From: Minisyncoccota bacterium
GTDB lineage: Bacteria > Patescibacteriota > Minisyncoccia > Phycocordibacterales > UBA9973
Direction of reading: 5' to 3'
NCBI GenBank assembly: GCA_041662525.1
Contig: JBAZSF010000001.1
Location: 41,383 to 105,382, forward strand
DNA length: 64,000 bases
Part shown: piece by piece, positions 2-50,258 of the stretch
Layout of the letters: each line of letters opens with the position of its first letter
How positions within the stretch are numbered: position 1 is the first letter of the stretch
Notes under the pieces: generated by a model
Database searches by the model: none
What the model was told of the DNA's origin: nothing
The model's input: the letters and a program-made list of their open reading frames with translations, nothing else
Program-made: the position numbers and the translations under genes

Positions 2-919
2 CTTATTTTTATTATACTTTTATTTATTACTTTCTATTTGAAATTTAAATATCAAAATTGGAAAATCTCCCATCAGTATTTAGGTATTGTTTTATTTTTG
101 AGCGGACTGCATATGTTTTTTGTGCCTAGTGATATTTCAAATAATACTATTTTAAAATACTACATGCTGGGATTATTTATTTTAGGTGCGTACTCTTTTT
201 TCTACAGAACTATTTTTAGAGTTTATAAAAAAGAGGAATATAAATACAAATTAGAAGAAGTAAAAAAAGTAAATGACAATATTGCTGAATTGAGACTCTC
301 TCCTTTGTCTAAAAAGTTAGAATTTTTACCTGGACAATTTGTTTTTTTGAGATTTGAAAACAAGAATATTCTTTCCGAATCACATCCTTTTTCTATTACT
401 TCTTCCACTGAAGATGAAGAGTTACTTTTAAGCATAAAAATATTGGGTGATTATACGTCTATGATTTATTTATTAAAACCTGGAGCTATTTGTAATATCG
501 AAGGGCCTTTTGGAGCTTTTTCTTACCTTAAAGCAAATTCAAAAAGACAGATTTGGGTTGCTGGAGGTATAGGCATTACACCGTTTTTAAGCATGGCTAG
601 AGAGCTCAATTTGAACAAGATGAGTAATAATGACTATGTTGTAGATCTTTATCATGTTGTTAACAATAGTACCGAAGCTGTTTTTGTGAATGAATTAATG
701 GAGATTTCAAAAAATAATGCTAATTTTAAATTCCACCAGTATTTTTCTGATGATAGTGGACGTATTTCAGCTGATTTTATTTTTCAAAATAGTCAGAATA
801 TTAAAGATGCTGAAATATTTTTATGCGGACCGGTTGGTTTTATGAAAAGTTTAAGGGATCAATTTGTAAAGTTAGGTTTTATTAAAAGTAAAATTTATTC
901 AGAAGAATTTAGTCTTTAA
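2..919 (+). CDS. NOX/ferric-reductase-like FAD/NAD(P)-binding oxidoreductase, 5'-partial (reading frame open to the window edge; ORF-track start at 38 is a TTG)
   Basis: HPFSITS FAD-binding motif and GGIGITPF NAD(P)-binding Gly-rich motif, typical of ferredoxin-reductase-type FAD/NAD domains of FRE/NOX enzymes. The upstream in-frame codons are hydrophobic (LIFIILLFITFY) with no stop, consistent with a truncated transmembrane heme domain. Confidence 0.6.
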   Translation, partial: LIFIILLFITFYLKFKYQNWKISHQYLGIVLFLSGLHMFFVPSDISNNTILKYYMLGLFILGAYSFFYRTIFRVYKKEEYKYKLEEVKKVNDNIAELRLSPLSKKLEFLPGQFVFLRFENKNILSESHPFSITSSTEDEELLLSIKILGDYTSMIYLLKPGAICNIEGPFGAFSYLKANSKRQIWVAGGIGITPFLSMARELNLNKMSNNDYVVDLYHVVNNSTEAVFVNELMEISKNNANFKFHQYFSDDSGRISADFIFQNSQNIKDAEIFLCGPVGFMKSLRDQFVKLGFIKSKIYSEEFSL

Positions 920-936
920 GGTTTTATTAAAATAAT

Positions 937-1821
937 ATGAAAAAATATATCACTGTATCTTTATTTGTTTTCTGGGCTATCATCGTTGCGGTACTTGTGG
1001 CTGGTTTGATTTCCCGTAATGACAATCAAATATTACTAGAACCAGATGTTAATGGAACTAATCAACCTGATAATATCACTGGAGTTAGCCCCAATACTTC
1101 TCCCTTAGTATTATCTATGACCGAACTTGTGAAGCATAATTCTAGCCAAAGCTGTTGGCTCCTAATTTCTGGCAAAATTTATAATGTTACCACTTATTTA
1201 AATCAGCACCCAGGTAATGCCAGCACGATTTTACCGACTTGTGGTAAAGATGCTACTGTAGCATACGATACCAAGGGCAGGCCAAACGGTAGCCCACATT
1301 CCAATAATGCAGAGACCTTGCTCGCGAATTATTTTATAGGTAATTTAAATCAAACTTTAAAAACTGGAACGAATCCAAATACTTCAACAAATACAAATCC
1401 TACTACAAACAAACCAACTACTCCTGTAGTTACACCAACTCCTGTACCTGTCACTCCTGCTCCGACACCCAATCCGACACTTGCTCTCACTATGGCTGAA
1501 CTCGCCAAACATAACTCAAGACAAAGTTGTTGGCTTCTCGTTTCGGGTAAAATTTACGATGTTACTACTTATTTAAATCAGCATCCGGCTGGCGCTAGTA
1601 CGATCTTGCAGACATGTGGCACAGATGCAACAGTGGCGTATAGTACTAGAGGTGGTAATGGCACACACTCGTCTTCTGCCAATGCACTTCTAGCTAATTT
1701 CTTTATTGGCAATCTAAATCAAACAGTTACTACTAGTCCAAACAATCCAACTACTCCGCCCACATCAAATCCAAATCCGACTACATCTAATTCAAGGGAT
1801 GATGACGATGATGACGATTAG
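937..1821 (+). CDS. N-terminally membrane-anchored protein with two tandem cytochrome b5-like heme-binding domains, Thr/Pro-rich linkers and a poly-Asp C-terminus
   Basis: Two ~80-aa repeats (WLLISGKIYNVTTYLNQHPGNASTILPTCGKDATVAY and WLLVSGKIYDVTTYLNQHPAGASTILQTCGTDATVAY) match the b5 core W-x-I-I-x-G-K-V-Y-D-V-T-x-F-x-x-x-HPGG ... AGxDAT, with a second His after each. N-terminal hydrophobic helix; TNPTTNKPTTPVVTPTPVPVTPAPTPNPT linker; tail SRDDDDDDD. Confidence 0.6.
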   Translation: MKKYITVSLFVFWAIIVAVLVAGLISRNDNQILLEPDVNGTNQPDNITGVSPNTSPLVLSMTELVKHNSSQSCWLLISGKIYNVTTYLNQHPGNASTILPTCGKDATVAYDTKGRPNGSPHSNNAETLLANYFIGNLNQTLKTGTNPNTSTNTNPTTNKPTTPVVTPTPVPVTPAPTPNPTLALTMAELAKHNSRQSCWLLVSGKIYDVTTYLNQHPAGASTILQTCGTDATVAYSTRGGNGTHSSSANALLANFFIGNLNQTVTTSPNNPTTPPTSNPNPTTSNSRDDDDDDD

Positions 1822-4502: not shown

Positions 4503-4860
4503 ATGAAAGAACTAACTGAGGAAGAAAAAAGAGTAATAATAAACAAAGGCACAGAAGTACCGTTTACAGGTGAGTATGTTAACAATAAAGCAACCGGCGT
4601 TTATGTTTGTCGACAATGCGGGAATCCACTTTATAATTCCAAGGATAAATTTGAATCCAATTGTGGCTGGCCTTCTTTTGATGATGAGATACCTGGAGCA
4701 GTGCATAAGACTTTGGATGCCGATGGGAGTACGCACAGAGATAACTTGCACAAACTGCGGAGCACATTTGGGGCATTTGTTTATTGGTGAGCATTTAACT
4801 CCTAAAAACAAAAGATACTGCGTGAACTCTATTTCAATGAAATTTATACCCGGAAAATAG
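4503..4860 (+). pseudogene. msrB: peptide-methionine (R)-S-oxide reductase MsrB, disrupted by a +1 frameshift near 4727
   Basis: Frame 1 encodes the MsrB N-terminal half (PFTGEY...CRQCGNPLY...[10 protein letters not shown]...KTLDADGS). Frame 2 encodes the C-terminal half ([33 protein letters not shown]). Joining them needs removal of one nucleotide around agtAcgc. Confidence 0.6.
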
Positions 4861-4882: not shown

Positions 4883-5371
4883 ATGATTAAAAAAATAGTA
4901 TTGGCGGGAGGATGTTTCTGGGGTCTTCAAGACTTGATAAGAAAACAAGCAGGCGTGGTGAAAACGCAGGTGGGCTATACAGGAGGAAAAGTTAAAAATG
5001 CAACATATGAAAATCATGAGGGGCATGCCGAGGCGGTAGAGATAGAATATGATACCGAAAAAACTTCTTATAAAAAAATGCTAGATTTTTTCTTTCAAAT
5101 ACACAATCCTACGACTATAAATCAGCAAGGGAATGATCGAGGAACTTCGTATCGTTCAGCAATATTTTACGGCAATGAGGAAGAAAAAAAGAAAGCAGAA
5201 AATTTCATAGATATCGTAAATAAATCAAAACGTTGGAAAGACCCTGTGGTTACAACACTGGAACCACTCTCTGATTTTTATCAAGCAGAAGAATACCATC
5301 AAGATTATCTACAGAAAAACCCAGGTGGCTATACTTGTCATGCTATTTATTTTGATAGTTATTTAAAATAG
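4883..5371 (+). CDS. msrA: peptide-methionine (S)-S-oxide reductase MsrA
   Basis: GCFWG active-site motif at the N-terminus; typical MsrA length. Confidence 0.9.
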
Positions 5372-13979: not shown

Positions 13980-16967
13980 ATGATTTCCCGAATATATGTA
14001 GCGTCCAAAGGAAAAGCTGACTTTATTAACTCTTACTTAATTTCCCATAAGTTGGGGAATGACAAAATCCTGAAAATCGCGGAAGCTCTAACAAACCCTA
14101 TCCTTGAAGAATTTTCTATAAATAAATTCCCAGCGACAGCTAAATTTTCTTATGCCATAGAAATAGGTTTCAAGCCAGGAGTCACAGACAATGTCGGGCA
14201 TACTGTGGAGGAAACTATTATGGACTTATTGCATATTGCTCCGGACGTTGGACGTCGGGGATTCGGACGTCCAACGTCCGGAGCTGATTTAGCAGTTTAT
14301 ACTTCTAAAATTTATTTAGTTTCTAATTCTAAAACAGAAGAGGTTGAGAAGATAGCTCTCTCGCTACATAATCCTCTGATTGAGCGTTCACATATCATAA
14401 GTATTTCTGATTTAAAAAAGAAAGGTTTACCATTAGAAGTTCCTAAAGTCATTTTGAAAAAGGCTACCCCAGTCATAAATGTCTCTCTTGATGTATCTGA
14501 CGAAGAACTTATAAAAATCGGTAGTGGAGGAATAATGGATGATAAGACAAAAGAAAGACGCGGTCCTTTGGCTCTTGATTTAGCGTCAATGAAAGTAATC
14601 CAAGAACATTTCAAAAAATTGAAAAGGGAGCCGACTGATATTGAGCTAGAATCTTTGGCACAAACTTGGTCTGAGCATTGCAAACATACTATTTTTGCAA
14701 ATCCTATCGATGACATCAAAGACGGTTTATATAAAACATATATAAAAGGCGCAACGAATTTAATTCGCAAACAAAAAGGAGCAAAAGATTTTTGTGTTTC
14801 TGTATTTAGTGATAATTCTGGAGGAATTATTTTTGATAAGGATTATTTAATTACTCATAAAGTAGAAACACACAATAGTCCTTCAGCTCTAGATCCATTT
14901 GGTGGAGCCATCACTGGCATCGTAGGTGTAAACCGGGACACAATAGGCTTCGGACTAGGCGCTAAACCGGTAGCTAATCTTTATGGTTTTTGCTTCGGTA
15001 ACCCTGAAGATAAAAGATCACTCTTTCGTGATAAAAATCTAACTCAAAAAATGCTTTCACCGAAAAGAATTATGGAGGGTGTAGTAAAAGGAATAAATGT
15101 TGGTGGAAATTGTTCTGGTATACCGACTCTTTCTGGTTTCGTTCGTTATGATGATAGATATAGAGGAAAGCCTTTGGTTTTTGCTGGTACGGTAGGGTTG
15201 ATTCCAAGAAATTTACCAGCCTCACCGAGTCTAGGCGGGCCCACCTTGGAAGGAAAAAAAAGGCTTTCACATCTCAAAAAAGCGCAAAACGGAGATTATG
15301 TCGTAGTTGTCGGAGGGAGAGTAGGTCTAGATGGTATTCATGGGGCGACTTTTTCTTCAGTGGTGATGGATTCAAGTTCTCCGGCGACTGCAGTGCAAAT
15401 CGGTGACCCAATAACTCAGAAAAAATTAAGTGATGCATTAATCAAAGAAGCGCGAGATCTGAATTTATATAACAGCATCACAGACAATGGCGCTGGAGGA
15501 ATTTCTTGTTCAGTTGCTGAAATGGCAAAAGAATGTGGCGGTGCAAAAGTTTCTTTAGAAAAAGTTCCATTAAAATACCCCGATCTTCGTCCATGGGAAA
15601 TTTGGATTTCAGAATCACAGGAACGTATGACTTTATCTGTGCCAAAGAAAAAATGGAATTTATTTAAAGAATTAATGGAAAAGAGAGGAGTAGAAGCTAC
15701 TATCATTGGAGAATTCACAAATTCTGGTAAATGTATTGTGGAATATTCTAATAAAAAAATCATGGATATTCCTATGGATTTTTTGCATGATGGTTTGCCG
15801 GAACAGCATTTATATACAAAACCCATTCAATTCACCTCTCCCCAAACCCCTCTCCATTATTTAGATAATGGAGAGGGGAAAGCAAGGGGTGAGGATTATA
15901 CGAAAGCCTTAGAAAAATTACTCGGTAGTAAAAATATCAGTGGATTTTCTTTTATTTCAGAGCAGTATGATCACGAAGTTCAAGGATCTTCTGTTTTAAA
16001 ACCACTCTCTGGACGAGGTCGTATCAATACCGATGCACAAGTTTTTCAGCCTGTTTTAAATTCAAACAAAGGAGTCATTCTATCTTCGAGCACTTATCCT
16101 TCATATGGAGACATTAGTACTTATCATATGGCCGCCTGCGCTATCGATAATGCTATTAGAAATACTCTTTGCGCTGGTGGAACACTTACACACTTAGCAA
16201 TTTTGGACAATTTCTGCTGGTGTTCATCCTATGATCAAACACGTTTAGCACAGCTCGTAGATTCAGTAAAAGCTTGTTACGACTATGCCGTCGGTTATGG
16301 AACACCCTTTATTTCTGGTAAGGATAGTATGTTTAATGACTTTAGGGGTTACGATAGTGACGGTAACCATGTGACTGTTTCTATCCCACCGACACTTCTT
16401 ATTTCAACGATTAGTGTTATGCCCGATTTAAATAAAACTGTTTCTCCAGAATTTAAAAATATAGGTGATATAATTTATTTATTAGGAGAAACAAATGATG
16501 AACTCGGAGGAGGAGAATATCTTAAAATGCTTGGAGCTATTGGCAACATTGTGCCCAAAGTAAATTTAAAAAAGAATATCAAAACTTATCGCGCCCTAGA
16601 AAAAGCAATTCAAAAAGAATTAATAGTTTCGGCAATGTCTGTTAATTCTGGCGGGCTGGCTATAGCACTCGCCAAAGCATGCGTAGGAGGAATGGTTGGA
16701 TGTAATGTTTCCCTTGACCCCATAGGCAAGATCTATGGGGTAGATGTAAAACTTTTCTCTGAAAGTCAGGGAAGGATTTTAGTTTCTGTAAATCCTAAAA
16801 ATATTTTAGGATTTGAAAAATTAATGAAGAATATTTTTTATGCCAAGTTGGGCAAAGTGGCCAAAGATAGTAAATTTGTTATTACGGATGGAAATAAAAA
16901 GATAATTGAAACAAGTGTAAAAAAATTGCACGATGCTTATCATAAATTTTCTAACTCACAAAAATGA
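13980..16967 (+). CDS. purL: phosphoribosylformylglycinamidine synthase subunit PurL with ~180-aa N-terminal (PurS-like) extension
   Basis: REPTDIELESLAQTWSEHCKHTIF and THNSPSALDPFGGAITGIVGVNRD motifs. The FGAM-synthetase core starts at about residue 215. No glutaminase domain (a separate purQ follows). Confidence 0.9.
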   Translation: MISRIYVASKGKADFINSYLISHKLGNDKILKIAEALTNPILEEFSINKFPATAKFSYAIEIGFKPGVTDNVGHTVEETIMDLLHIAPDVGRRGFGRPTSGADLAVYTSKIYLVSNSKTEEVEKIALSLHNPLIERSHIISISDLKKKGLPLEVPKVILKKATPVINVSLDVSDEELIKIGSGGIMDDKTKERRGPLALDLASMKVIQEHFKKLKREPTDIELESLAQTWSEHCKHTIFANPIDDIKDGLYKTYIKGATNLIRKQKGAKDFCVSVFSDNSGGIIFDKDYLITHKVETHNSPSALDPFGGAITGIVGVNRDTIGFGLGAKPVANLYGFCFGNPEDKRSLFRDKNLTQKMLSPKRIMEGVVKGINVGGNCSGIPTLSGFVRYDDRYRGKPLVFAGTVGLIPRNLPASPSLGGPTLEGKKRLSHLKKAQNGDYVVVVGGRVGLDGIHGATFSSVVMDSSSPATAVQIGDPITQKKLSDALIKEARDLNLYNSITDNGAGGISCSVAEMAKECGGAKVSLEKVPLKYPDLRPWEIWISESQERMTLSVPKKKWNLFKELMEKRGVEATIIGEFTNSGKCIVEYSNKKIMDIPMDFLHDGLPEQHLYTKPIQFTSPQTPLHYLDNGEGKARGEDYTKALEKLLGSKNISGFSFISEQYDHEVQGSSVLKPLSGRGRINTDAQVFQPVLNSNKGVILSSSTYPSYGDISTYHMAACAIDNAIRNTLCAGGTLTHLAILDNFCWCSSYDQTRLAQLVDSVKACYDYAVGYGTPFISGKDSMFNDFRGYDSDGNHVTVSIPPTLLISTISVMPDLNKTVSPEFKNIGDIIYLLGETNDELGGGEYLKMLGAIGNIVPKVNLKKNIKTYRALEKAIQKELIVSAMSVNSGGLAIALAKACVGGMVGCNVSLDPIGKIYGVDVKLFSESQGRILVSVNPKNILGFEKLMKNIFYAKLGKVAKDSKFVITDGNKKIIETSVKKLHDAYHKFSNSQK
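14238..14284. repeat. 47-nt perfect GC-rich palindrome inserted in frame in purL
   Basis: gctccggacgttggacgtc-ggggattcg-gacgtccaacgtccggagc has a 19-bp perfect stem and encodes APDVGRRGFGRPTSGA within the N-terminal domain. Confidence 0.7.
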
Positions 16968-18748
16968 AAACAGAAACTAAACCACATTCGACAGGCTCAG
17001 TGTCTACAACCTGCCAAAACTGTAAAGAAGACTTCGTTATTGAACCGGAGGATTTTAATTTCTACGAAAAAATGAAAGTTCCAGCTCCGACTTTTTGCCC
17101 TCTTTGTCGAGCAGAGAGGAGGTTTGCTTTTAGAAACGAACGTAAACTTTTTAAGGTAAAAGATACTTTTACTGGTAAAGAAATTTTTTCATTATACCCA
17201 GAAGAAAGTGGCAGAAAAATTATTACTCAAGAAGAGTGGTATGGGGATGGCTGGGATGCGATGGAATATGCCCGCGAATATGATTTTTCTCGACCGTTTT
17301 TCGAGCAATTTTTTGAACTTCAAAGAGAAGTGCCTATTTACAATCTAAATGTACAAAGAATGATTAATAGTCCATATTCTGGAAACGCTACAGCGTTAAA
17401 AAACTGTTACCTCTGTTTTCATTCTAATTATACTGAAGATAGTATGTATGGCAGTGCGAATGATCATTGCAAAGATTGCGTGGATAATTCTCACATTCAA
17501 TATTCAGAACGATGTTATGAATGTTTTTGGTTAGAAAAATGTTATCAATGTTATTTTTCTATAATGTGTGGAGAATCACACAATCTTTTTTTATGTCGTA
17601 ATTGTTTAGGATGCAATGATTGTTTTGGCTGCGCAAATTTACGCAAATCCTCTTACTGTATTTTCAATAAGCAATATTCTAAAGAAAATTATTTTAAAGA
17701 AATAGAAAGTATGAAATTGAATACTATTTTCGGCTTAAAAAAAATGCGAGGTAAAGCTAGAGCCTTTTGGTTAACTCAGCCAACAAAATCTCAACATGGT
17801 CTTAAAAATTTAAATTCAACAGGTTCTCATGTTACACATTGTAAAAATGTGAATGATAGTTTTTTGATCAGAGGAAGTGAAAATATGCGTTACTGCCAAC
17901 ATATGCAAGTACCTGCGAATAAAGATTGCTATGATGTTTCTAATTGGGGAGAAAATACAGAACTTTCTTATGAGACTTTAGTGTGTGGTGAAAATGCCTA
18001 CAACATGAAATTTAGTTTCAATTGCTGGCCGACATGCACGGACAGTGAATACTGCATGGATCTCTTTAGTTGCTCAGATTGTTTTGGCTGTGTGGGTTTA
18101 AAGAAAAAACAATATTGTATTTTCAATAAACAATATACTAAAGAAGAATACTATCAGATAATAGAAAAAATTAAAAAACAAATGGATGATATTCCTTATA
18201 CTGACAAGCAAGGTCTTATTTATAAGTACGGAGAATTTTTCCCAATAGAATTTTCTCAGTCTGGATATAATAATACTGTCGCAATTCAACATTTCCCACT
18301 TACGAAAACAGAAGCAGAAAAAAAGGGATACCTATGGGTAGAAGCGCCCCAGAGTGAATATAGAATTACTATTAAATCATCCGAACTTCCGAATTCTATT
18401 CCTGAAGAAAATGAAATTTTAAAAGAAATTATAGAATGCGAGAATTGTAAAAAAGCTTATCGGATAATGGAAAATGAATTAATTTTTTTGCGTAAAGAAA
18501 ATCTGCCTCTGCCTGATTTGTGTCATGATTGCAGATATGATAGAAGAATAAAGGATAGACTATCGATCAGATCGTATGACCAATCTTGCATGTGCGGAGG
18601 AACTTTAGACGAAACTGGAATTTATAAAAATACCGTTAAACATCTCCATGCAGATGAACCGTGCGGAGAGAAATTTAAAACTGGACACGCTCCAGAAAAT
18701 AAAGAGATAGTTTATTGTGAAAAATGTTATCAACAAGAAGTTTACTAG
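16964..18748 (+). CDS. cysteine-rich multi-zinc-ribbon-like protein of unknown function (594 aa); paralog of 47951..49681
   Basis: ATGA start/stop overlap with purL. About 50 Cys arranged mostly as CxxC pairs. N- and C-terminal C-x2-C...CP-x-CR ribbons; two internal ~170-aa repeats ending YCIFNKQY(S/T)KEEY; CRNCLGCNDCFGC run. Confidence 0.75.
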   Translation: MKTETKPHSTGSVSTTCQNCKEDFVIEPEDFNFYEKMKVPAPTFCPLCRAERRFAFRNERKLFKVKDTFTGKEIFSLYPEESGRKIITQEEWYGDGWDAMEYAREYDFSRPFFEQFFELQREVPIYNLNVQRMINSPYSGNATALKNCYLCFHSNYTEDSMYGSANDHCKDCVDNSHIQYSERCYECFWLEKCYQCYFSIMCGESHNLFLCRNCLGCNDCFGCANLRKSSYCIFNKQYSKENYFKEIESMKLNTIFGLKKMRGKARAFWLTQPTKSQHGLKNLNSTGSHVTHCKNVNDSFLIRGSENMRYCQHMQVPANKDCYDVSNWGENTELSYETLVCGENAYNMKFSFNCWPTCTDSEYCMDLFSCSDCFGCVGLKKKQYCIFNKQYTKEEYYQIIEKIKKQMDDIPYTDKQGLIYKYGEFFPIEFSQSGYNNTVAIQHFPLTKTEAEKKGYLWVEAPQSEYRITIKSSELPNSIPEENEILKEIIECENCKKAYRIMENELIFLRKENLPLPDLCHDCRYDRRIKDRLSIRSYDQSCMCGGTLDETGIYKNTVKHLHADEPCGEKFKTGHAPENKEIVYCEKCYQQEVY

Positions 18749-47950: not shown

Positions 47951-49681
47951 TTAATAAACTTCTTGTTGGTAACACTTCTCGCAATAAACAATCTCTGGCC
48001 TTTCTGGGGCATAACTGGTCTCAAATTCTACTTCACATTTTTTGGTGCCGTGCGTATGATTTTCTTTATTGCACATACACTCTCTGCGCCAGAGTTTGCT
48101 GGGTCCTCTATTTTTAAAACGTTTAAGATGACGGCACTCAGGACAGTTACGTGGTATTGGTATTTGCATTCTTTTATAAAAAGCTAACTCATCTACAATA
48201 ACTCGATAATTTTTATTGCATTCCATGCATGCAAAAACCTCCTTATTTACATCAAAATCAGAAGATAATTCTAAAATGGAATCTGGGAAAGTTTTCCAAT
48301 CAATAGTTTCCTTGCCATATGTCCCACGCGGAGTATCTTCCCATTTGAAACCCTGCGCTAATGCTTCTTCTTTTGTTAGTGGAAATTCGTCCATAACCGA
48401 AGACTCATTATAGCCAAACGGAGATAATTCTTTTGGAAAAAAATCTCCGTAAATCCCCTCTTGTTTCATTTTTTCTACAATTTCTGCTTGGAGTTTTTCA
48501 TATTCTTCTTTAGAATACTGTTTATTTAAAATACAATAAGAACCTTTTATTAAACCAACACATCCAAAACAATTATTAGAATTCGGGCAATTTAAACAAT
48601 ATTCCATAAATTGTGAGCCCCAGCAATATTGAGAGCAAGTAACATTTGATGCTTCAAGCCCGGTATTTAGAGTATTATAAATCAATTCTGCCGTGCGCCC
48701 TGCAGTATTGCAATCCATACAATCTTTTGCCCCGCGCCAAACATGCATGGAATAAGCATTGTCTTCTGCGTCATAAGAATGAAAACACTGACGATTATTT
48801 TTGACGTTCGTCATATAATTTCCCGTAGAATTTACGGCATTAAAAATTTCAGCAAATTTTCTAGGTTTGTCTTTTATAAAATTTTGAAATTCTTTTTTAA
48901 AATTTTTCATACCCGAATGTGTGTCTAATTTAAAAGATTTTAATTTATTTTCATATTCTTCTTTGGTGTATGGTTCATCAAAAATACAATACTTTTGTCC
49001 CCGTAAATTTATACAACCCAAACAATTTGAGCAATTTCGGCAATCAAGAAGAAAGGAACTGTCAAGACAGCTATGGCATCCTTTGGAAAATCGTAAATTA
49101 TTACAGTCATAACAATCATCAACTTCGTACGATAGTTCTACTTTATTCGTAAAAGAACAATCGACTAGATCTTTTGAAAGCTGAATCCAATAACAATTGA
49201 TGCAATTCTCATTATTTGAGCTTTCTATGATCACATAACAGTTTTTATTATCAGCCGTATAATTTAAGTAATAACAATTTACATTTCTTAAGCCAGTCAA
49301 AGCTGGTTTTGGAACTTTTTTCCAAAGTTCACTAAACTGCTTAAAGAAAGATTCATTAGAATTATAATTTTGAGCATATTTATTAGCATTTAGGTCATCA
49401 CCATACCAACAATTAGAACACCAACTAGGGTAAGTTTTATTTGGACTAAAAATTGAAATTGTATCTTTTTTACAATTATCACAAATACGCTTGTAAAAAC
49501 ATCTTTCATTTTTAAAACAAAGTCGAAGTTGCATTCGACATTCTGGACAATTTTTAGGTGGCAATACTCCAATCTTTTCATAAAATCCAAAATCATCCGG
49601 CTCAATCGTGAAGTTTTTTTGACAACTTTGGCAAGTAGTAGGCACTGAGTCTTGCGAATGTGTTTTAGTTTGTACTTCCAT
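47951..49681 (-). CDS. cysteine-rich multi-zinc-ribbon-like protein of unknown function (576 aa); paralog of 16964..18748
   Basis: Same architecture as 16964..18748 and an identical C-terminal EIVYCEKCYQQEVY; 17-nt overlap with scpB. Confidence 0.75.
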   Translation of the reverse strand: MEVQTKTHSQDSVPTTCQSCQKNFTIEPDDFGFYEKIGVLPPKNCPECRMQLRLCFKNERCFYKRICDNCKKDTISIFSPNKTYPSWCSNCWYGDDLNANKYAQNYNSNESFFKQFSELWKKVPKPALTGLRNVNCYYLNYTADNKNCYVIIESSNNENCINCYWIQLSKDLVDCSFTNKVELSYEVDDCYDCNNLRFSKGCHSCLDSSFLLDCRNCSNCLGCINLRGQKYCIFDEPYTKEEYENKLKSFKLDTHSGMKNFKKEFQNFIKDKPRKFAEIFNAVNSTGNYMTNVKNNRQCFHSYDAEDNAYSMHVWRGAKDCMDCNTAGRTAELIYNTLNTGLEASNVTCSQYCWGSQFMEYCLNCPNSNNCFGCVGLIKGSYCILNKQYSKEEYEKLQAEIVEKMKQEGIYGDFFPKELSPFGYNESSVMDEFPLTKEEALAQGFKWEDTPRGTYGKETIDWKTFPDSILELSSDFDVNKEVFACMECNKNYRVIVDELAFYKRMQIPIPRNCPECRHLKRFKNRGPSKLWRRECMCNKENHTHGTKKCEVEFETSYAPERPEIVYCEKCYQQEVY

Positions 49682-50258
49682 TTTCTTCTTTTAATTCCCC
49701 CACCTCCGCAGATAAATCTTCTAAATTTTTAGCTGCAATATTAATAGAGTTATTAACTTCATCATAGCCTGGCAATTCTTCCACTGATCTTACTCCCATA
49801 AAAGATAGCAACTCAAAACTTGGTTTATAAATAAATTTCCGACTATCTTTCATATCTGTTGTTTTCTCTACAAGCCCTCGAATAGACAAAGCGCGTAAAG
49901 TGAAACTGGAATTTACCCCTCTTATATAATCAATCTCCGCTCTACTTACGCCATTTTTATAAAGAATAATAGAAAGTGTTTCCAAGCTCGCTTTAGAAAG
50001 CTCTTTATTCAACTCTTCTTTTTGCAAGTTTTCTATAAGTTCACTACATTCTGGAGCCGTGCCAAGCATAACATCATCTTCTTTCTCTATCACAACCACA
50101 CCTCTTTCTTTAAAACTTTCTTTCAATTTTTCTATTGCCTCGTTTATTTCTATCTGTCCCACTTTAAAAACTTCAGAAAGTTTCTTTCGTGACATTGGTT
50201 CTCCTTTCCAAAATAATATTGCTTCTATTTTCGATTCTAAATTTTTGTCTAAATTCAT
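49665..50258 (-). CDS. scpB: segregation and condensation protein B
   Basis: IEAILFWKGEPMSRKKL N-terminal winged-helix; 4-nt overlap with scpA. Confidence 0.85.
   Translation of the reverse strand: MNLDKNLESKIEAILFWKGEPMSRKKLSEVFKVGQIEINEAIEKLKESFKERGVVVIEKEDDVMLGTAPECSELIENLQKEELNKELSKASLETLSIILYKNGVSRAEIDYIRGVNSSFTLRALSIRGLVEKTTDMKDSRKFIYKPSFELLSFMGVRSVEELPGYDEVNNSINIAAKNLEDLSAEVGELKEENGSTN

Follow-up and report, generated by a model that had tools for sequence, protein, structure and literature searches.

A NOX-like transmembrane reductase gene followed by a gene for a predicted membrane-anchored tandem cytochrome b5 protein in a Minisyncoccota bacterium and its relatives

In the NADPH oxidase homologue (NOX) of Streptococcus pneumoniae (SpNOX), hydride passes from NAD(P)H to FAD, after which the electrons move to an inner haem held by H69/H129 and an outer haem held by H83/H142 (PMC11564096, PMC5676040). 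The outer haem is unusually solvent-exposed and passes electrons directly to cytochrome c, at a higher rate than to O2; a canonical O2 site was not detected, and a protein acceptor was proposed by analogy with MsrQ-MsrP (PMC11564096, PMC5676040). According to the same two bacterial NOX studies, O2 is perhaps not the real acceptor and a protein acceptor is likely (PMC5676040, PMC11564096). Cytochrome b558 of Ectothiorhodospira vacuolata (PDB 1CXY) has a disulfide and a signal peptide, unlike eukaryotic b5, and is presumed to be periplasmic (PMC8877833). For the Candidate Phyla Radiation (CPR), a preprint of 2021 reported that 185 of 1427 pFre-containing genomes have PF00173 and PF01794 genes no more than 10 kb apart and proposed a membrane complex (bioRxiv 10.1101/2021.11.17.468889). 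Here, we describe such a gene pair in a stretch of 64,000 nt from a Minisyncoccota bacterium (GCA_041662525.1, contig JBAZSF010000001.1, positions 41,383 to 105,382), hereafter the window. It consists of a NOX-like reductase gene, cut by the window edge, and a downstream gene for a protein with two cytochrome b5 domains.

The features of the pair, in window coordinates, are the following.
2-919, + strand: 3' part of the gene for an SpNOX-like flavocytochrome of the NOX/ferric reductase family, residues 137-441 of 441 (translation, Pfam)
71-112, + strand: bis-histidyl motif H160-x12-H173 on transmembrane helix 5 (TM5), predicted to ligate haem b at the inner and outer site, invariant; H160 at 71-73, H173 at 110-112
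383-403, + strand: FAD-binding motif HPFSITS, fitting H[PSA]F[TS][LIMV] as defined in PMC5676040; H264, P265 and F266 invariant
563-586, + strand: motif GGIGITPF, which contains GIGITP (translation, homologue alignment)
824-832, + strand: CGP in the reductase (sequence)
908-910, + strand: invariant Phe F439, third residue from the C-terminus (invariant column in the homologue alignment)
920-936, + strand: intergenic spacer of 17 nt without a terminator-like site (sequence, terminator scan)
937-1821, + strand: gene for a 294-aa membrane-anchored protein with two cytochrome b5 domains (ATG at 937; Pfam Cyt-b5 twice)
955-1011, + strand: single N-terminal hydrophobic helix, residues 7-25, after MKK (hydropathy 2.88; helix 2-28 in the AlphaFold2 model)
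1105-1353, + strand: b5 domain 1, residues 57-139, axial H91 (HPGN) and H121, Cys pair C73/C102
1354-1485, + strand: flexible linker of 44 residues rich in Thr/Pro/Asn (75% T/P/N/S; predicted local distance difference test (pLDDT) <50)
1486-1722, + strand: b5 domain 2, residues 184-262, 73% identical to domain 1, axial H216 (HPAG) and H244, Cys pair C198/C227
1723-1818, + strand: Thr/Pro-rich spacer followed by the acidic C-terminus SRDDDDDDD, an instance of a family-wide C-terminal motif

The window holds the 3' two-thirds of the reductase gene, which encode the last part of TM4, then TM5 and TM6, and finally the FAD/NAD(P)H-binding dehydrogenase domain on the cytoplasmic side. The frame is uninterrupted from nt 2 to the TAA at 917-919 (305 residues by translation). 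Its start lies beyond the window edge; a mechanical list of open reading frames (ORFs) puts the start of ORF1 at a TTG at 38, yet the frame is open to nt 2. A preliminary description, made from the window sequence, had pointed out HPFSITS and GGIGITPF in ORF1 and read them as the FAD/NAD motifs of FRE/NOX electron-transfer enzymes. Both motifs are indeed present at 383-403 and 563-586, so that the NOX-defining sequences HPFSI (383-397) and GIGITP are both found, and profile hidden Markov models matched the fragment with FAD_binding_8 (1.5e-13), NAD_binding_1 (2.2e-9), NAD_binding_6 (9.7e-9) and FAD_binding_6.

The full-length reductase was found via an exact-protein look-up of the b5 gene. Three other contigs carry this gene, and one of them (L002) holds the entire reductase gene at 964-2289. 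The encoded protein, P0001, has 441 aa and is 100% identical over the window fragment in the homologue search. PF01794 (Ferric_reduct) matched its transmembrane part (9.9e-13; 48.7 bits, with the cut-off at 28), and the AlphaFold2 model of P0001 (pLDDT 88) has six long helices followed by a dehydrogenase fold. The histidines H87-x13-H101 and H160-x12-H173 are invariant across 24 aligned homologues, the most distant of which share 41% identity. The six-helix, predicted bis-haem domain expected upstream by the preliminary description was thus recovered, but part of it, the TM5 pair H160 and H173 (71-73 and 110-112), already lies inside the window, which corrects that description; the partner histidines H87 and H101 are on TM3, upstream of the window. 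The x13 and x12 spacings match the bis-histidyl pattern that defines NOX, with two His-X12/14-His motifs on TM3 and TM5 and 20 residues or more between them (PMC5676040), and H160/H173 align with H129/H142 of SpNOX (residue roles from PMC11564096).

The best sequence match in the PDB is full-length SpNOX (8QT6/8QQ7, E 1e-34), and Foldseek gave a TM-score of 0.77/0.84 between the P0001 model and this protein. The reductase ends in ...EEFSL. Judging from its position, at the same distance from the C-terminus, F439 is the putative equivalent of SpNOX F397, which stacks on the flavin (PMC11564096). Sixteen Lys/Arg residues fall on predicted inside loops compared to four outside; together, hydropathy and charge give a predicted topology with the N-terminus inside and the dehydrogenase domain in the cytoplasm. 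By all sequence criteria, the protein would be a bacterial NOX, for which ‘NOX-like transmembrane reductase’ is probably a safer name than oxidase. NCBI annotates the identical protein as ‘ferric reductase-like transmembrane domain-containing protein’ and assigns it to a Candidatus Paceibacterota metagenome-assembled genome.

The second gene encodes the 294-aa protein foreseen in the preliminary description, with an N-terminal hydrophobic anchor and two b5 domains carrying HPGN (1207-1218), HPAG (1582-1593) and in each case a second His (H121 at 1297-1299, H244 at 1666-1668). PF00173 matched in two stretches (E 1.3e-41, 140.9 bits against a gathering cut-off of 23.7), and the NCBI annotation of the identical protein is ‘cytochrome b5 domain-containing protein’. 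In the AlphaFold2 model (pLDDT 77 overall), both b5 cores exceed 90. The best Foldseek match is 1CXY, with a TM-score of 0.90 and 40% identity, and more than 50 b5 structures were matched with a probability of 1.00. Domain 1 also aligned to 1CXY by phmmer (6.2e-17), with both Cys residues opposite those that form the disulfide of 1CXY (PMC8877833). Among 32 homologues with two domains, no exchange of H91, H121 or H216 is seen, H244 is kept in 30, and the two Cys of each domain are invariant. The ‘AGxDAT block’ of the preliminary description has to be corrected, as the block reads CG[KT]DAT, its Cys being half of the invariant pair. The two points on which that description had staked its reading are plain from the alignments: His-bearing transmembrane helices exist upstream of the window, and the axial His of the b5 repeats are conserved.

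The Thr/Pro linkers and the SRDDDDDDD tail at the C-terminus were found as described. Overall, the linkers consist of 75-96% T/P/N/S and are disordered in the model, and the inter-domain linker varies in length and sequence between homologues. The sequence of the anchor helix (SLFIFW...AGL) is unusually conserved, at 0.72, whereas the b5 cores reach 0.68 and the linkers 0.30-0.37, which suggests that a specific intramembrane contact may be maintained. This helix probably acts as a signal-anchor placing the remainder of the protein outside the cell; its conservation argues for retention and not for cleavage. In combination with the linkers and the Cys pair, the anchor makes a location of the b5 domains outside the cytoplasmic membrane likely. 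The earlier proposal of an extracytoplasmic two-gene electron-transfer module gains support from these features, i.e. the MKK-anchor, the linkers and the Cys pair, and from the positive-inside charge of the reductase, as far as sequence can tell.

In related b5 proteins, the number of b5 domains strung on (TP)n linkers ranges from one to four, and some of these proteins also have Ig-like domains. Domains within a protein share a mean identity of 0.69, compared to 0.57 (d1-d1) and 0.56 (d1-d2) between proteins, and no signal of positional specialisation of domain 1 versus domain 2 was seen in this comparison. The higher likeness within proteins indicates that repeated duplication or homogenisation has probably taken place and that the domains are probably equivalent in function.

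Next, the pairing of the two genes was analysed. With a gap of 17 nt, and not 18 nt as first stated, and no terminator-like site in it, the reductase and b5 genes are probably co-transcribed; at many related loci, the two ORFs directly adjoin or overlap each other. When GTDB species genomes were scanned with a NOX alignment, the matches listed comprised 80 broadly distributed loci. In 24 of these 80, a figure that describes the broad family and not Paceibacteria because the scan sampled distant NOX relatives (≤42% identity) instead of the close subfamily, the next gene downstream, on the same strand, is a b5 ORF (with E≤1e-8 in 19 cases). They include Paceibacterota, Saccharibacteria, other CPR and the DPANN archaea L004, L016 and L028, as well as three loci of 57-61% G+C from Gammaproteobacteria (Porticoccaceae, Cellvibrionaceae and Halopseudomonas). 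No weight was given to the labels ‘Gammaproteobacteria’ and ‘Pseudomonadales’ of binchicken metagenome-assembled genomes of about 40% GC, which cluster with CPR. The b5 domains of L065 and L078 have Pfam E-values of 3e-20 and 2e-13, respectively.

The reciprocal scan, of metagenomes with a b5 alignment, also gave 80 loci among the matches listed. A NOX gene is adjacent in 58 of the 70 evaluable loci: it lies directly upstream on the same strand in 55 and is otherwise adjacent in three, 12 loci have room but no adjacent NOX, and the remaining 10 have too little flank to judge. An additional pair occurs in L165, in which P0242, 56% identical to the E. vacuolata-type b5, directly follows a NOX-like gene. 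The conservation of the neighbourhood in relatives, put forward as a check in the preliminary description, hence extends across many lineages. In a rough neighbour-joining tree, most b5-linked reductases fall in one clade rich in CPR and DPANN, and the gammaproteobacterial trio forms a separate clade. Nearest to the window NOX in this tree are the Pacearchaeota copies (L004 and L016), whose b5 partners carry a poly-acidic tail. This suggests that the whole two-gene unit, acidic tail included, may have moved between Paceibacteria and Pacearchaeota.

Based on these results, we consider it reasonably probable that electrons follow a core path from NAD(P)H to FAD, over two membrane haems to the tethered external b5 domains and on to an external acceptor. 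NAD(P)H would reduce FAD in the cytoplasmic domain of the reductase, and electrons would cross the membrane over two stacked b haems, the inner one bound by H87/H160 and the outer one by H101/H173. The b5 protein would be held in the same membrane by its conserved N-terminal helix, probably packed against the reductase, with its two equivalent, predicted disulfide-stabilised b5 domains displayed outside the cell on flexible Thr/Pro tethers. There, they would serve as the dedicated protein acceptor of the exposed outer haem; the b5 protein of this locus is a candidate for that role, given that the outer haem of SpNOX is exposed and that its authors posit a protein acceptor. The anchor helix would keep the carrier beside the reductase, while the b5 domains, on their flexible linkers, could ferry electrons outward. 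Since one to four domains occur per protein and likeness is greater within proteins, the domains may be seen as interchangeable relay beads, which would pass single electrons from the membrane to an external acceptor that the neighbouring genes do not encode. This acceptor might be a complex of Fe(III) or another metal, a quinone- or humic-type compound, O2 or the surface of a host. A Paceibacterota cell, fermentative and poor in respiration, could benefit by re-oxidising NAD(P)H, reducing extracellular iron, or both. Domain content, ligands, topology signals and the conserved gene pairing are observed, while haem loading, NOX-to-b5 transfer, the anchor-helix complex and the terminal acceptor are predicted from them.

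Several points weigh against this path. Roughly two thirds of the broadly sampled NOX-like loci have no recognisable b5 neighbour, and in Proteobacteria and Bacteroidota PepSY_2, DUF2271 and cytochrome b561 proteins are the neighbours instead. P0241, which is 98% identical to 1CXY, lies away from any NOX gene. For the terminal acceptor, the 125 genes flanking the pairs offer no neighbourhood clue. The complex through the anchor helix is proposed from conservation, and haem binding, electron transfer and topology in this family are predicted from sequence. CPR bacteria are generally considered unable to make haem; the three to four haems per complex would then have to be scavenged. Finally, SpNOX-type enzymes can reduce O2 unaided, and a b5 protein is thus not strictly needed for turnover.

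Outside CPR and DPANN, NOX-like genes are followed by other exported or membrane proteins: PepSY_2 in Sulfitobacter (L071 5272-5688), DUF2271 in Vulcaniibacterium (L075 5228-5695) and cytochrome b561 in Saprospiraceae (L042 5152-5679). Each NOX-like subfamily may have its own outside partner. Very divergent b5-like proteins stand beside some of the NOX-like genes without a recognisable b5 neighbour. Downstream of Saccharibacteria/CPR NOX genes, two anchored proteins without Pfam recognition were seen (L007 5349-6119 and L026 5330-6046), with a b5-like core, a kept Cys pair and altered haem-ligand motifs (hhalign 82% and 21%, respectively). In comparison with the b5 profile, the L007 protein is b5-like, that of L026 doubtful and that of L013 not b5. 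The first two are possibly the atypical ‘cytb5-like’ proteins of the 2021 preprint.

In some CPR proteins, the b5 array is preceded by a fused N-terminal multi-TM domain about 110 residues long (L114 3090-4169, L122 3210-4829 and P0181). This domain has two His 14 residues apart on one helix (e.g. WHTVIVPVVFVPLVYVH) and no Pfam match, and these arrays have no adjacent NOX gene. The domain may serve as another membrane haem entry point.

Another idea is that the tethered b5 domains are mainly haem-capturing receptors of a haem-auxotrophic symbiont, with the reductase shifting the redox state of the haem iron for capture or release. CPR bacteria are not known to synthesise haem, yet encode haem proteins, which fits this idea. 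The 2021 preprint raises redox-dependent haem affinity for related MAPR-like CPR proteins (10.1101/2021.11.17.468889). However, the b5 domains keep the canonical tight bis-His site typical of electron carriers, the same pair occurs in haem-prototrophic Gammaproteobacteria, and no haem transporter is a conserved neighbour among the 125 flanking genes. We give hardly any credence to haem acquisition as the role of the pair.

The flanking genes themselves reveal no third member. No Pfam family is found in more than five of the 125 genes flanking pairs, and a conserved partner naming the terminal acceptor (iron transporter, Mo-enzyme, two-component system or desaturase) was sought among them and did not emerge. 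Because no third family recurs, the NOX-b5 pair would appear to be a self-contained, mobile two-gene unit that is complete as it stands. The lack of a conserved client gene also favours a small molecule, a mineral, O2 or a distantly encoded protein as the acceptor. One version of the last would be electron supply to a dedicated extracytoplasmic enzyme encoded elsewhere, as from MsrQ to MsrP or from eukaryotic b5 to desaturases and hydroxylases. Eukaryotic b5 works as a redox donor to enzymes, but extracytoplasmic redox enzymes are few in CPR genomes. The 125 flanking genes show no recurring candidate client either, and the context in the window is one of housekeeping, with parB upstream and dnaX downstream. 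Even with the precedent of MsrQ, an FRD (ferric reductase domain) superfamily protein that acts as redox donor to an enzyme (PMC5676040), a dedicated client enzyme seems very improbable.

The acidic C-terminus raises the question of iron. The family motif is roughly R/G-(D/E)n-[FWY]-(D/E)-DD; nearly all of 120 homologues end acidic, usually in ...DD, and the tail is also present on the Pacearchaeota versions. It was considered as a general property or sorting tag of the organism's proteins, which was rejected, as it is the sole such tail among the 221 ORFs of the 64-kb window. A tail essential to the pair was likewise rejected: the Saccharibacteria and gammaproteobacterial b5 versions lack it and keep the NOX-b5 pair, so that it is dispensable for the core function. 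In assimilatory ferric reduction like that of yeast Fre1, extracellular Fe(III) chelates would be reduced for uptake, with b5 as the ferric reductase site and the poly-Asp tail concentrating Fe3+ or binding mineral. Such a role shares the electron path proposed above and differs by naming the acceptor and the purpose. The reductase belongs to the FRE/NOX family, the tail is conserved in Paceibacteria and Pacearchaeota, and L165 has a TonB-dependent receptor two genes upstream of its pair, all of which agree with iron assimilation. On the other hand, no iron permease, Feo/FTR or siderophore gene recurs in the 125 flanking genes, the pair is retained where the tail is missing, and SpNOX shows very low ferric reductase activity (PMC11564096). 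Ferric assimilation as the specific purpose of the pair is therefore, in our view, quite unlikely.

Within its genome, the pair is flanked by a parB-like gene upstream (on L002) and dnaX downstream, with a promoter-like site ahead of dnaX. The G+C content of the window is 30-38%. No further b5-like gene was found within about 10 kb downstream, and the gene lists of the window, L001 and L002 hold no two-component system. Further downstream, msrB (4503-4860, + strand) is split over two frames, of which 4503-4790 covers SelR profile positions 1-80 and 4570-4860 covers positions 75-116, implying a 1-nt frameshift near 4725-4735. An identical 95-aa msrB gene call is present on the independent ENA contig L001. 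The split msrB is followed by an intact msrA at 4883-5371.

These oxidative-repair genes, msrB and msrA, lie 2.7-3.5 kb downstream of the pair and would suit a true NADPH oxidase that uses O2 at the surface of an oxygen-sensitive cell, or makes superoxide or H2O2 as a signal or weapon, with b5 modulating, buffering or extending the activity instead of feeding an acceptor other than oxygen. The E. vacuolata-type b5 gene also adjoins a glutathione peroxidase gene. However, bis-His b5 haems are poor O2 reductants, and NOX enzymes reduce O2 without an additional cytochrome. Moreover, msrA/B is not a conserved neighbour of the pairs among the 125 flanking genes, and msrB is frameshifted here. The closest relative, SpNOX, reduces O2 in vitro (PMC5676040), but it has no canonical O2-reaction centre, formed in eukaryotic NOX by His/Arg close to the outer haem, and its authors doubt O2 as physiological acceptor (PMC11564096). 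Oxygen or reactive oxygen species chemistry is, taken together, an unlikely main function.

The window also encodes two paralogous Cys-rich proteins of about 580-600 aa with many CxxC pairs, at 16955-18748 (+ strand) and 47951-49690 (- strand). They are 38% identical (E 5e-124), both terminate in ...VYCEKCYQQEVY, and neither has a Pfam match.

Electron export over the tethered b5 domains, the path favoured here, would have several consequences. CPR and DPANN are usually described without electron-transport chains, and a two-gene export route would change models of their redox balance, as well as of iron acquisition, host dependence and haem supply. A more far-reaching proposal, which is tentative and in our estimation rather doubtful, is that many ultra-small CPR bacteria and DPANN archaea rely on the pair as their main redox device in the membrane, with NAD(P)H-powered extracellular electron export over tethered, copy-number-variable b5 beads instead of multihaem c-type cytochromes. 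Through such a chain, organisms without a respiratory chain would discharge the reducing power of fermentation to minerals, to dissolved acceptors or to the surface of the host, and b5 would be the physiological acceptor class of SpNOX-type enzymes.

Among known systems, MsrQ-MsrP (E. coli YedZ/YedY) resembles the pair in that an FRD membrane haem protein feeds an extracytoplasmic partner from the same operon (PMC5676040, PMC11564096). MsrQ, however, has no fused dehydrogenase domain, takes its electrons from quinol or Fre and has a molybdoenzyme as partner, whereas the window reductase has its own FAD/NAD domain. No Mo-enzyme family is found among the 125 flanking genes. MsrQ-MsrP serves as a working analogy only. 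In the flavin-based extracellular electron transfer of Listeria (Ndh2/EetAB/PplA), a fermentative monoderm drives electron export from NADH over its one membrane to a carrier tethered at the surface. In function, this system may be analogous to the pair; the proteins are unrelated, quinone and flavins are used instead of haems, and no homology is claimed.

Cytochrome b558 of E. vacuolata is closer to the window b5: it is exported, is the best PDB match (6.2e-17) and has the same Cys pair, and gammaproteobacterial relatives of b558-type b5 (about 50-56% identity) are encoded immediately after NOX-like genes. Cytochrome b558 consists of one soluble domain, made with a signal peptide that can be cleaved, whereas the protein encoded by ORF2 has two domains, a conserved anchor that looks uncleaved, Thr/Pro linkers and an acidic tail. 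The prediction that the b558 gene itself adjoins a NOX-like gene failed, as the neighbours of the 98%-identical P0241 are a HicB-like gene and a glutathione peroxidase gene (L164). In L164 (1126-2095), P0241 is followed by the glutathione peroxidase gene on the same strand, a different possible context for this b5. For exported bacterial cytochrome b5, known since 1999 (PMC8877833), the pairing with NOX offers a possible functional context.

The window locus belongs to the broad class of the 2021 preprint, with a PF00173 gene 17 nt from a PF01794 gene in a CPR genome, and the gene pair itself is not a new discovery, pFre/cytb5 co-localisation in CPR having been reported there. Literature searches on CPR, Patescibacteria or Parcubacteria with ferric reductase or b5 returned nothing beyond this preprint. 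It centres on the MAPR-like, Tyr-ligated cytb5MY, two atypical b5-like proteins and a two-component system, whereas the window b5 is His/His-ligated; the cytb5MY, CBLA/CBLB and two-component arrangements were looked for at the window locus and are absent. The preprint is silent on export, disulfides, DPANN and SpNOX, and states that the co-localisation is absent outside CPR. In contrast, it was found here also in DPANN archaea and high-GC Gammaproteobacteria. This presence goes beyond the literature searched, as do the NOX-type reductase with a putative dedicated extracytoplasmic b5 acceptor, the conserved anchor helix, the acidic C-terminus and the variable number of b5 beads.

The closest comparison is with SpNOX. 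Like P0001, SpNOX (PDB 8QQ7, 8QT6) is a single chain with a six-helix bis-haem part and an FAD/NAD(P)H domain; both have these four His, the FAD and NAD motifs and a C-terminal Phe. The two share about 24% identity, and the C-loop of P0001 is about 14 residues longer; short outer loops as in SpNOX imply an exposed outer haem. The NOX papers and a paper on the FRD superfamily make no mention of a b5 partner. Whereas the NOX of S. pneumoniae has no known partner protein, that of the window has a co-inherited b5 gene 17 nt downstream, and a b5 protein that is apparently exported and tethered in the same membrane would be a concrete candidate for the NOX acceptor.

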